This document shows positions 26,508 through 28,849 of a DNA stretch of 64,000 bases, piece after piece (position 1 is the stretch's first letter; every line of letters starts with the position of its first letter). This stretch comes from Felixounavirus LF110P1. Location of the stretch: sequence record OZ035744.1, one strand, 5' to 3'. The position numbers were made by a program, and so were the translations under genes. A model generated the notes under the pieces. That model was not told the origin of the DNA. It was given only the letters and a program-made list of their open reading frames with translations, and made no database searches.

Positions 26508-26712
26508 CTTTCTTCTTCCGTTTGCGTGAAGTGTCAATCAATGAGTCTATGTTAGTAGCCCTGACCTTTTCACGTTCATCGTTAAGATAATCGTCAAGAG
26601 CCTTTTCAATCTGTGAATCATCTTGACAGATAACTGTAAAGACTGTAAAGCCGTCTGTATCGTCAATTATCTTACCATAACCGCTTCTGGGATGTAACTT
26701 TTTAAGAGCCAT
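26500..26712 (-). CDS. Small hypothetical protein upstream of and coupled to the HTH gene
   Basis: 70 aa; 8-nt overlap with the ATG of the HTH ORF; basic C-terminus SRKRKKKDE. Confidence 0.4.
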   Translation of the reverse strand: MALKKLHPRSGYGKIIDDTDGFTVFTVICQDDSQIEKALDDYLNDEREKVRATNIDSLIDTSRKRKKKDE

Positions 26713-26713
26713 A

Positions 26714-27097
26714 TCAAATACCTGTGCAGCTTCTGTTTTCTAAGAAATACTCAACACCATACATAGCTTTTTGCATCAAATCTTCTTTAAACTGGATACG
26801 ATGGTTGAGCATAGCCTGTACATCAATATCATCACGGTGTTTCTCTTTAATGTTTGCAGATTGCAGGAAATACTCTGCAAGAACACGATACTGGTAGTCA
26901 GTCACCTTATCAGTCATCTCTGTTAAAGACTCTTCAGAGATGGGTTTAAGTAACTCACCTTTAGATAACGCAACACCTTTTACAATCTGGCAAGTGTCTT
27001 CTGGAACACCTGATAAGTCCACATTTGGAAGTTCTGTTGCATTGACTGGTAAGTTCATTGCCATAACCATTGCAGTAGCTAATAAAATCTTTTTCAT
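26714..27097 (-). CDS. Secreted/periplasmic protein with signal peptide
   Basis: N-terminal MKKILLATAMVMAMNLPVNA with a likely cleavage site after VNA; 127 aa. Confidence 0.5.
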   Translation of the reverse strand: MKKILLATAMVMAMNLPVNATELPNVDLSGVPEDTCQIVKGVALSKGELLKPISEESLTEMTDKVTDYQYRVLAEYFLQSANIKEKHRDDIDVQAMLNHRIQFKEDLMQKAMYGVEYFLENRSCTGI

Positions 27098-27222
27098 AAT
27101 GACCTCAAAGTTATATTAAATTTTGTATTACATTGAGTATAAAAATAAGCTATAACACCTGACTTGTCAACAGATTTTATAGCTTATTTGGCAGATTTTT
27201 TATAAGGCTACTGCCATCCTTC

Positions 27223-27460
27223 CATACATTACCTAACCAAGCCTAACATCACACAACCAGACCGAGCCGCACCCCGCCTTATTAAAAGACCCTCTTAAAG
27301 ACCTTTTAAAAAGGTAAGTCTCATTTTAATGTAGTTGAGACTAACTACCCATACCATACCTTACACCGCCGTACCACACCGAACATCACCAAACCATACC
27401 AAGCCAGAGCCTACTGTACCATACCGAACATCACTTAAAAACCCTCTTAGAAGACTCTTA
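27223..27460. repeat. Two degenerate tandem copies of a C/A-rich, G-poor element with a 19-bp direct repeat
   Basis: GTACCACACCGAACATCAC (27371-27389) and GTACCATACCGAACATCAC (27416-27434); TTAAAAGACCCTCTTAAAGACC (27282-27303) and TTAAAAACCCTCTTAGAAGACT (27435-27456). Confidence 0.5.
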
Positions 27461-27521
27461 AGTGATGCTGGTGAGTACCCGTTGGTTTATGCTGCTCAGT
27501 ATACTCACCAAATTTTCTATG

Positions 27522-27710
27522 TCAACAACTTTCTAATAAAGTTTTATGAAGACTTTGCTTAACAACCCGCCTCACATGCCTATGCTCTTTCTTAATAAAG
27601 AGTGACCTCTTCTTGACAGAGCGCCTATTCTTGTAAGTATTACTAGGATACTTATCATGAACCGGACAACAACTCCCCGGATTTGTAAACTTGATAATCT
27701 CTCTTTTCAC
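27522..27710 (-). CDS. Small basic protein (possible; coupled to ligase stop)
   Basis: 62 aa, Lys/Arg-rich; ATG overlaps the ligase stop by 1 nt. Confidence 0.3.
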   Translation of the reverse strand: MKREIIKFTNPGSCCPVHDKYPSNTYKNRRSVKKRSLFIKKEHRHVRRVVKQSLHKTLLESC

Positions 27711-28849
27711 TATTCATAATCCCTAATAACTAGCCCTACAGGGAACTGTAAAGACCCCTTACGAGTCATCTTCTGGAACTGAACCGTTAAAGGTTTCCCG
27801 ATAAACTCTTCAGGATGTTCAGCAAGATACTGTTTCTTCTCGTGTGTAGTTTTCCATGAGACATCTACAAAGACGTTAGGAAGAGTCTCTACAACGAACT
27901 TGCCATGACCACGTTTATCGGTCTTTACACCAGTCACTTTAAACTCTTCAGTGTGCATCTTCTTGTGCTTAATCAAGAAGTATGAACGGTGACCACACTC
28001 GTAGAAAGATTCTTCAGAGATTGAGCGGTACATTGCACCTTCAAACTTAGCTTCAACCCACTTATCATGAGCTTCATCAAACTCTTCCCAAGAATTTACA
28101 CGACGAGACTTAACAGGGACAACTTTACAGCCATCTCTAAAGTCATTCAATGGTGAAGTCTCAATAATATCTCTACGCTCAGGCCACGTCTTAGTACTAT
28201 CACAGATATCGTACCAGTAAAACTTAAGTAAATGTCTGTCAGGATTGTCTTCATTTTTAATCATGGAGACAATATCTTCTAAGTCCAACCCATGAGCATA
28301 GATTTCACCATCAAATTCATCAACATCTTTATGGAGCCTTAACATTGCCATAATGTCAGGTATTAGTTCAGTAGGTATTTTGTAAACAGTATTCTCACGA
28401 GAATATGCTGTAAATACACTACCAATGCTTAAGTGCCTTGAAATCCTACAACGGACACCATCAAGTTTCGGTTGAGCATCAGCAGGGAACTTCAGATACT
28501 TTGCATGGCTAACCTTTGCAGCATCATGAGCAAGTTGTACACCAACCTTCTCAGTGTTCTGTGCAGACTCTTTTGTGTAAGCATAACCTTTGCGGTCAAC
28601 TTGCTTTTTATACTTAGCAGCAACTTCAAAGAGAGCTTGCTGTTCAGCATTACGCTCATTCTTTTTACCGATGTTCTTAGTCTCTGCTGTGTACTCTTCA
28701 AACATCATCTTACCATTTTCTTTACCGTAGGTTGTGATAACTTTGTCACCTACAGAAACACATGACCAGACATTGAAAGAGCCATCTTTATTTTGTTTGT
28801 ACAGTATTGTCATTTTATTCCTCTGAGTGATACCAAGTATTGCAAGCAT
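27710..28849 (-). CDS. ATP-dependent DNA ligase
   Basis: Adenylation motif I PKLDGVR (KxDG), motif IV EGAMY, motif V FLIKHKK. Confidence 0.85.
   Translation of the reverse strand: MLAILGITQRNKMTILYKQNKDGSFNVWSCVSVGDKVITTYGKENGKMMFEEYTAETKNIGKKNERNAEQQALFEVAAKYKKQVDRKGYAYTKESAQNTEKVGVQLAHDAAKVSHAKYLKFPADAQPKLDGVRCRISRHLSIGSVFTAYSRENTVYKIPTELIPDIMAMLRLHKDVDEFDGEIYAHGLDLEDIVSMIKNEDNPDRHLLKFYWYDICDSTKTWPERRDIIETSPLNDFRDGCKVVPVKSRRVNSWEEFDEAHDKWVEAKFEGAMYRSISEESFYECGHRSYFLIKHKKMHTEEFKVTGVKTDKRGHGKFVVETLPNVFVDVSWKTTHEKKQYLAEHPEEFIGKPLTVQFQKMTRKGSLQFPVGLVIRDYE

Follow-up and report, generated by a model that had tools for sequence, protein, structure and literature searches.

The DNA analysed here, referred to below as the window, is a stretch of 64,000 nucleotides from the genome of a Felixounavirus (Felix O1-like) phage, LF110P1. 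Its positions 26700-27900 match 297 phage records, and the best match over the whole stretch is Felixounavirus NRG857CP1, with 94.8% identity. A gap of about 420 bp (27098-27521) separates a 127-aa gene from a small ORF and the DNA ligase gene, and all the genes around it lie on the minus strand (Table 1). The original prediction, made from the letters alone, had described this gap as lacking a convincing ORF, and this description held: the only ORF is a 75-aa plus-strand ORF (27335-27562) that reads through the repeats and is, as had been supposed, spurious. The C/A-rich, G-poor character of the plus strand was likewise borne out, the arrays described below containing 43% C and 8% G, with a GC skew reaching -0.52. 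We also recovered two modules that terminate in a TTAAAAGACCCTCTTAAAGAC-like box (27285-27309 and 27437-27461, respectively; the boxes are 76% alike and 152 nt apart). The 19-mer that had been assigned to each of the two repeated units was misplaced, however, because both copies (27371-27389 and 27416-27434) lie within the second array, 45 nt or nine pentamers apart, and correspond to an internal duplication of four units. The region 27098-27530 had no match in Rfam even at E values up to 10, and no gathering score was reached. The PhageMaP paper on the related phage Bas63 is silent on this intergenic region.

Table 1. Predicted features of the gap and its neighbours, with positions in the window.
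Feature	Position	Strand	Remarks
DNA ligase gene	27710-28849	-	Neighbour of the gap
62-aa ORF	27522-27710	-	Basic, Cys-containing; between the ligase gene and the vrRNA promoter
Promoter P1	27498..27525	-	Sigma-70-type, TTGACA-16-TATACT; 11/12 consensus positions; upstream of the vrRNAs
Hairpin over P1 -10 element and start site	27470..27509	-	-12.4 kcal/mol, z -2.8; conserved in SUSP1
boxB hairpin	27429..27467	-	Before the first repeat tract; 18 bp including 4 G.U; conserved in all relatives
vrRNA-B guide tract	27349..27428	-	16 YNNGG units; 17 with TGATG at 27429-27433
vrRNA-B 3' tail	27308..27348	-	32-nt H-type pseudoknot (27317-27348), type T2, then CUUUUU
boxA hairpin	27282..27309	-	Between the two vrRNAs; three G.U pairs
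vrRNA-A guide tract	27222..27281	-	12 YNNGG units
vrRNA-A 3' tail	27190..27221	-	32-nt pseudoknot, type T1; S1 AAGG/CCUU, S2 GGCAG/CUGCC
Terminator-like hairpin with U-run	27139..27189	-	19-nt arms; conserved at ≥99% in 172/230 records
Promoter P2	27142-27170	-	TTGACA-17-TATTTT, for the downstream 127-aa gene; embedded in the terminator-like hairpin
127-aa gene	26714-27097	-	Downstream neighbour of the gap

The gap has a strict period of 5 nt, a feature absent from the original prediction. The motif CCNNA occurs in 12 tandem copies at 27222-27281 and in 17 at 27349-27433, corresponding on the gene-sense strand to YNNGG tracts of 12 and 16-17 units. CC at six or more of 10 consecutive period-5 positions was found only at these arrays in the 64 kb, in which periods of 4, 6 and 7 reached at most 5/10 for CC, and GG at period 5 reached 4. 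GG at period 6 occupied 6/10 positions at around 11657 and 22815 of the window, probably reflecting glycine-rich coding repeats. Tandem Repeats Finder returned fragments only, since the units vary in sequence. We gathered 19 homologous loci from IMG/VR and GenBank, yielding 52 unique arrays and 688 units. Read on the plus strand, position 1 of the unit was C in 98% of cases, position 2 was C in 80% and never G, positions 3 and 4 were unconstrained, and position 5 was A (90%) or G (10%), and therefore always a pyrimidine on the RNA. Array lengths were multiples of 5 without exception in the 19 loci. The arrays were hypervariable, being almost wholly different in sequence, and the flanks and inter-array scaffolds were nearly identical.

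Both of the hairpins described in the original prediction were recovered: that at 27314-27346 is stem S2 of the pseudoknot in the tail of vrRNA-B, and the second covers the -10 element of P1. Each module also has a box hairpin. As minus-strand RNA, boxB folds with an energy of -17.5 kcal/mol (z -6.3), versus -8.6 kcal/mol for the plus strand, and the corresponding values for boxA are -5.6 and -1.2 kcal/mol; because several of their pairs are G.U, the box hairpins form fully only on minus-strand RNA. The 3' arm of boxB provides the degenerate first unit, TGATG, of the tract that follows it. Four paralogous types of tail were identified, each exactly 32 nt long and sharing a common H-type pseudoknot, modelled with S1 formed by columns 1-4 and 15-18 and S2 by columns 7-11 and 28-32. 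Over 13 distinct tails, 100% of the cells were paired, with compensatory double changes in eight of the nine pairs, and sliding of the partner by 1-3 columns decreased pairing to 31-42%. The stems of the vrRNA-B tail are GUAG/CUAC (S1) and AGUCUCA/UGAGACU (S2). Tail T2 and boxA together constitute a 67-bp direct repeat, which is present twice in full-length loci. The functional strand of the arrays is the minus strand. The earlier proposal of a structured non-coding RNA was right in kind, but the RNA belongs to the opposite, gene-sense strand, and would be a programmable guide RNA with a pseudoknot tail.

VIPR systems were described in April 2026 in two preprints, with SUSP1 as the model phage; they comprise Vipr (about 20 kDa, with a RAMP fold), the accessory protein Vap, and vrRNAs, each with 9-16 YNNGG repeats and an invariable 3' tail of about 40 nt, which forms a pseudoknot in the SUSP1 clade (bioRxiv 10.64898/2026.04.26.720920, 10.64898/2026.04.26.720927). 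One Vipr protomer binds per GGY, which is flipped out, such that the NN dinucleotides are presented and pair with double-stranded DNA, every third target base being skipped; binding of the target by VIPR leads to transcriptional silencing, Vipr being a CRISPR-like phage protein directed by its guides against rival elements, and these systems have been proposed to predate CRISPR (bioRxiv 10.64898/2026.04.26.720920, 10.64898/2026.04.26.720927). SUSP1 vrRNA1 is expressed and functional, and the vrRNAs of about 100 nt originate from the gene-sense strand and co-purify with Vipr (bioRxiv 10.64898/2026.04.26.720920, 10.64898/2026.04.26.720927).

The arrays of the window follow the grammar of vrRNAs, with a conserved GGY, hypervariable NN and strict register. 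SUSP1, which belongs to the same subfamily (Ounavirinae) as the window phage, has its VIPR locus in the equivalent slot, from the ligase gene to the 127-aa gene, in the order ligase gene, promoter and boxB, vrRNA1, vipr, vap1, three more vrRNAs and 127-aa gene. A segment of about 100 nt of the window, comprising promoter, leader and boxB, recurs without change upstream of SUSP1 vrRNA1, and the vrRNA-A tail is identical to that of SUSP1 vrRNA4. The 62-aa ORF is also common to SUSP1, and an unrelated small ORF takes its place in humlepung and UAB_Phi87. On this sequence evidence, the gap very probably contains two genuine vrRNA genes of the type II/SUSP1 clade, transcribed on the minus strand from 27525-27498 and orphaned, their effector being absent. 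From the identity of promoter and leader with those of SUSP1 vrRNA1, we infer that these vrRNAs would be expressed in LF110P1. The window shares with SUSP1 the slot, promoter, boxB, YNNGG grammar and tail types with a 3' pseudoknot, together with the predicted class of targets, E. coli satellites with a tape-measure gene and a baseplate gene. It differs in lacking vipr and vap1 and in having two arrays rather than four, and its longer guide, of 16-17 units, is at or just over the published range of 9-16. The loci do not qualify as CRISPR arrays, having a 5-nt unit with two variable bases, no spacers, and no Cas-family ORFs nearby.

Searches for the effector genes in the window gave no match by tblastn with Vipr and Vap1 (best E value 0.66), and the 146-aa Vap1 had none in NRG857CP1 (best E value 0.93). 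Two Vipr HMMs, one built from 118 members and the other from a second iteration, likewise had no hit, either in the window or in NRG857CP1, whose complete genome is 84,421 bp long. The same models retrieved the Vipr of SUSP1 at about 1e-84 (118-member) and 1e-79 (second iteration), and the 118-member model also recovered Vipr ORFs, with E values of 1e-8 to 1e-81, from 33 unrelated viral contigs with such arrays. The NRG857CP1 genome and the window are collinear, starting at the first base of the former. Judging by this relative, which is 93-98% identical, vipr is probably also lacking from the last ~20 kb of the LF110P1 genome, outside the window. A reader protein non-homologous to Vipr might conceivably act in its place. 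No Pfam family was matched by Vipr or Vap1, nor by the products of the 127-aa gene and the 62-aa ORF.

The lack of an effector is not peculiar to this phage. In the phage collection, the scaffold was present in 230 records and Vipr in 118 (≥90% identity), so about half of the related records are effector-less; the scaffold was found in 75 Salmonella phages and Vipr in 17. Scaffolds at ≥90% identity also occurred in two "Campylobacter" phage records and one "Staphylococcus" phage record, which are probably mislabelled or contaminated. A scan of IMG/VR for (CCNNA)x6 yielded more than 120 viral contigs (loci L024-L142), some of them with plain microsatellites. Heterogeneous YNNGG arrays were present in 48 of these contigs, 32 of which had a Vipr-family ORF within the segment analysed. 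Examples of such arrays include L058 (2230-3410), L044 (4603-5045), L042, L054, L067 and L055 (3756-4055); L058 has at least 11 tandem arrays, separated by ATTAAATTCATTAAACCATT and again G-rich on the gene-sense strand, and L055 contains an unbroken tract of 60 units. The preprint survey was seeded with Vipr proteins and mentions neither Felix O1 nor orphan arrays (bioRxiv 10.64898/2026.04.26.720920, 10.64898/2026.04.26.720927); effector-less loci would not be listed there, as the pipeline begins from these proteins. The element is therefore of a known kind, and what is new is a lytic helper-type phage with guides but no effector, a situation not described in the preprints.

Comparison of the relatives distinguished a short form of the locus, with two arrays in about 415-440 bp, as in the window, from a long form with 4-5 arrays and two minus-strand genes encoding proteins of 200 and 146 aa, the first of which is 97% identical to the vipr product of SUSP1. 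About half of the relatives have this vipr-vap1 cassette, located between their arrays. The short form corresponds to the long form minus everything between the two copies of the 67-bp repeat of tail T2 and boxA. Because the two-array layout equals the long form without its inter-repeat segment, deletion by homologous recombination is the simplest origin, and it is from the geometry of the repeats, rather than from a phylogeny, that we infer loss from a full locus and not insertion of a cassette. Felix O1 itself, the type phage (FO1a; L154, 2620-2770), has a one-array form, with P1, boxB, 11 units and tail T1; its -10 element is weakened (TATGCT) and GG is kept in six of the 11 units, which may reflect decay. 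The vrB array (the guide of vrRNA-B) of the window is wholly different from that of NRG857CP1 (L144, ~27340-27420), between identical flanks. The vrA guide differs from that of NRG857CP1 by a single NN base, and likewise by one of its 24 coded NN bases from that of L016, a phage with Vipr. It appears that guides are exchanged as cassettes by way of the conserved scaffold.

We investigated the targets of the two guides by stringing together their NN dinucleotides, each separated from the next by one wildcard base, according to the published 1-nt skip. Satellites were located through the SUSP1 gene that the preprint describes as shared with its satellite; this family was present in 474 of 5,426 complete E. 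coli genomes. Scoring covered few satellite loci, seven copies and four lower-ranked variants. As a positive control, SUSP1 vr1, vr2 and vr4 matched satellites at 88-91% of coded bases with the 1-nt skip only, other skip rules giving at most 0.77 for guides of at least 10 units. The vrB guide matched a satellite gene in E. coli O177:H21 at 29 of 32 coded bases (91%), without the TGATG unit, which belongs to the boxB stem; the skipped bases there coincide with the third positions of the target gene's codons. This score was reached by direct scoring of the four lower-ranked E. coli variants; in strain PAR, vrB scored 27/34 with TGATG and 27/32 without it. The vrA guide matched at 20 of 24 coded bases (83%), across the start of a small satellite gene, at a site shared unchanged by four E. 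coli strains; here the skipped bases do not coincide with third positions of codons in the annotated gene. The predicted sites are TCGATAACCAATCTTTTCATGTTCGAATCTGTAATTGGTAGCATCAT for vrB and AAAGGCGCGTAACTGTGTGAGTCATTGTAAAAATC for vrA. In a null distribution with permuted unit order (300 permutations per guide), the maxima were 19 for vrA and 24/34 for vrB, and the observed scores were reached in 0/300 cases for each guide. Both guides thus have an NN code with predicted sites in genes of E. coli phage satellites, which the SUSP1 guides target as well.

BLAST with idealised target queries ranked no E. coli variant above the loci already found, and exact 10-unit targets had no match in IMG/VR or in GTDB representative genomes, such that no perfect site was detected there. 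There were no self-targets, and no guide of any relative targeted Felixounavirus genomes. A satellite gene encoding a hypothetical protein of 107 aa (L147, 10895-11218; homologues at L150, 7639-7962, and L155, 227-550) was matched by guides of several phages, and appears to be a favoured VIPR target. The satellite of E. coli GN4751 has its own 14-unit YNNGG array (L152, 4057-4126, minus strand), and no Vipr ORF or homologue was found in the seven satellite loci. Arrays of vrRNAs on SUSP1-targeted satellites have been reported (bioRxiv 10.64898/2026.04.26.720920, 10.64898/2026.04.26.720927). The satellite arrays resemble those of the window in consisting of guides without a vipr gene in the same element, but satellites have a helper phage on which they depend and from which Vipr may come, whereas the window phage is itself a complete lytic helper-type phage, for which a source of Vipr is not guaranteed.

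Other functions had also been considered for the gap. A plus-strand transcript could act as a rut region halting antisense transcription into the early-gene cluster, which corresponds to the Rho-utilisation role suggested originally, and the plus strand does have the classic composition of such sites, being C-rich, G-poor and predicted to be unstructured over 60-85 nt. Nevertheless, no convincing plus-strand promoter feeds into it, and neither the strict 5-nt register nor the purine at each fifth position is required of a rut region. The hairpins on either side depend on G.U pairs formed on the minus strand only, the SUSP1 equivalents are expressed as gene-sense RNAs that co-purify with Vipr, and the NN code matches satellite genes. 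Together with the orientation of the promoter and the synteny with SUSP1, these features point to vrRNAs, and a rut function is very improbable. The same evidence (register, hairpins, promoter, synteny and targets) favours vrRNAs over the suggested packaging site, replication origin or regulator-bound iteron array. Such a DNA-level element would account for a repeated, non-coding and conserved locus adjoining replication genes, but two of the five positions of the unit are hypervariable, unlike protein-binding iterons, the covarying pseudoknot and G.U hairpins indicate RNA, and the number of arrays ranges from one to five among otherwise collinear phages; this reading can hardly be correct. 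The GGY/NN grammar, the matches to targets and the synteny with SUSP1 also led us to drop four further candidates: a TRAP-like protein-binding RNA, an origin based on an R-loop or G-quadruplex, a series of ACCNN sites recognised by primase, and hotspots of recombination on either side of a mobile cassette.

More difficult to judge is whether the vrRNA arrays have any function in their present state. They could be functionless leftovers of a deleted VIPR locus, intact because the deletion is recent or because they are continually overwritten by recombination with Vipr carriers, as would fit the absent effector, the geometry expected of recombination between direct repeats and the degraded appearance of the single array of Felix O1. 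The wholesale swap of one array relative to NRG857CP1, between identical flanks, indicates frequent recombination, and because recombination is frequent, arrays could be refreshed without selection. The prevalence of the effector-less state, in about half of the related records and most Salmonella phages, argues against mere leftovers. Moreover, YNNGG integrity is alike in effector-less (76%) and complete (79%) loci, the pseudoknot pairs are all intact, and satellite matches at ≥80% are equally common, in 6-7 of 13 effector-less guides versus 20 of 39 guides of Vipr carriers. The effector-less UAB_Phi87 even has a guide with a 24/24 satellite match, and the satellites themselves carry effector-less arrays. 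We regard the leftover explanation as evenly poised between right and wrong.

In the mechanism that we propose for the orphaned vrRNA genes, P1 would drive minus-strand transcription of two vrRNAs, each consisting of a YNNGG run and a 3' pseudoknot, and homologous recombination between the 67-bp direct repeats would have removed vipr-vap1 from a full locus. Guides without Vipr are therefore unable to act alone; they would be either loaded onto Vipr from a co-infecting relative, or idle and renewed by recombination with Vipr carriers. We lean slightly towards guides that were recently orphaned and are currently an idle remnant, kept fresh by recombination with Vipr-carrying relatives. Loading onto Vipr supplied in trans by a co-infecting relative is possible, but we would not expect it, and any other fate of the guides is less probable still. 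It seems rather unlikely that effector-less arrays are a maintained strategy in about half of the Felix O1-like phages, most Salmonella-infecting ones included, through free-riding on a competitor's Vipr or titration by decoys.

Orphan or virus-borne mini-CRISPR arrays without cas genes are similar to the arrays of the window in that guide arrays occur apart from effector genes, and those of viruses are thought to use trans-supplied effectors in virus-virus conflicts. They differ in having contiguous spacers between repeats rather than a gapped NN code in pentamers, and in their effector family and pairing rule. If true, maintained effector-less arrays would be the VIPR counterpart of virus-borne mini-CRISPR arrays. 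The TRAP sites of Bacillus trp leaders consist of (G/U)AG triplets with spacers of 2-3 nt, in about 11 or more repeats, each bound by one subunit. They resemble vrRNAs in their repeated fixed triplet with a 2-nt spacer and in the binding of one protein subunit per repeat, but TRAP-site RNA does not serve as a guide, its spacers are devoid of information, and neither the protein fold nor the host is related.

VIPR is a newly described form of RNA-based DNA reading, with a gapped NN code and a RAMP filament, and its guide genes can be recognised from raw sequence through their 5-nt periodicity. The well-studied Felix O1 group, some members of which serve in phage typing and therapy, has vrRNA genes, often without an effector gene, and protein-first surveys miss such loci. 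If the orphan guides are active in trans, guide "parasitism" or decoying would be added to the repertoire of phage-phage conflict, and this would bear on predictions of the interactions of therapeutic Felix O1-like phages, both with satellites and among themselves.
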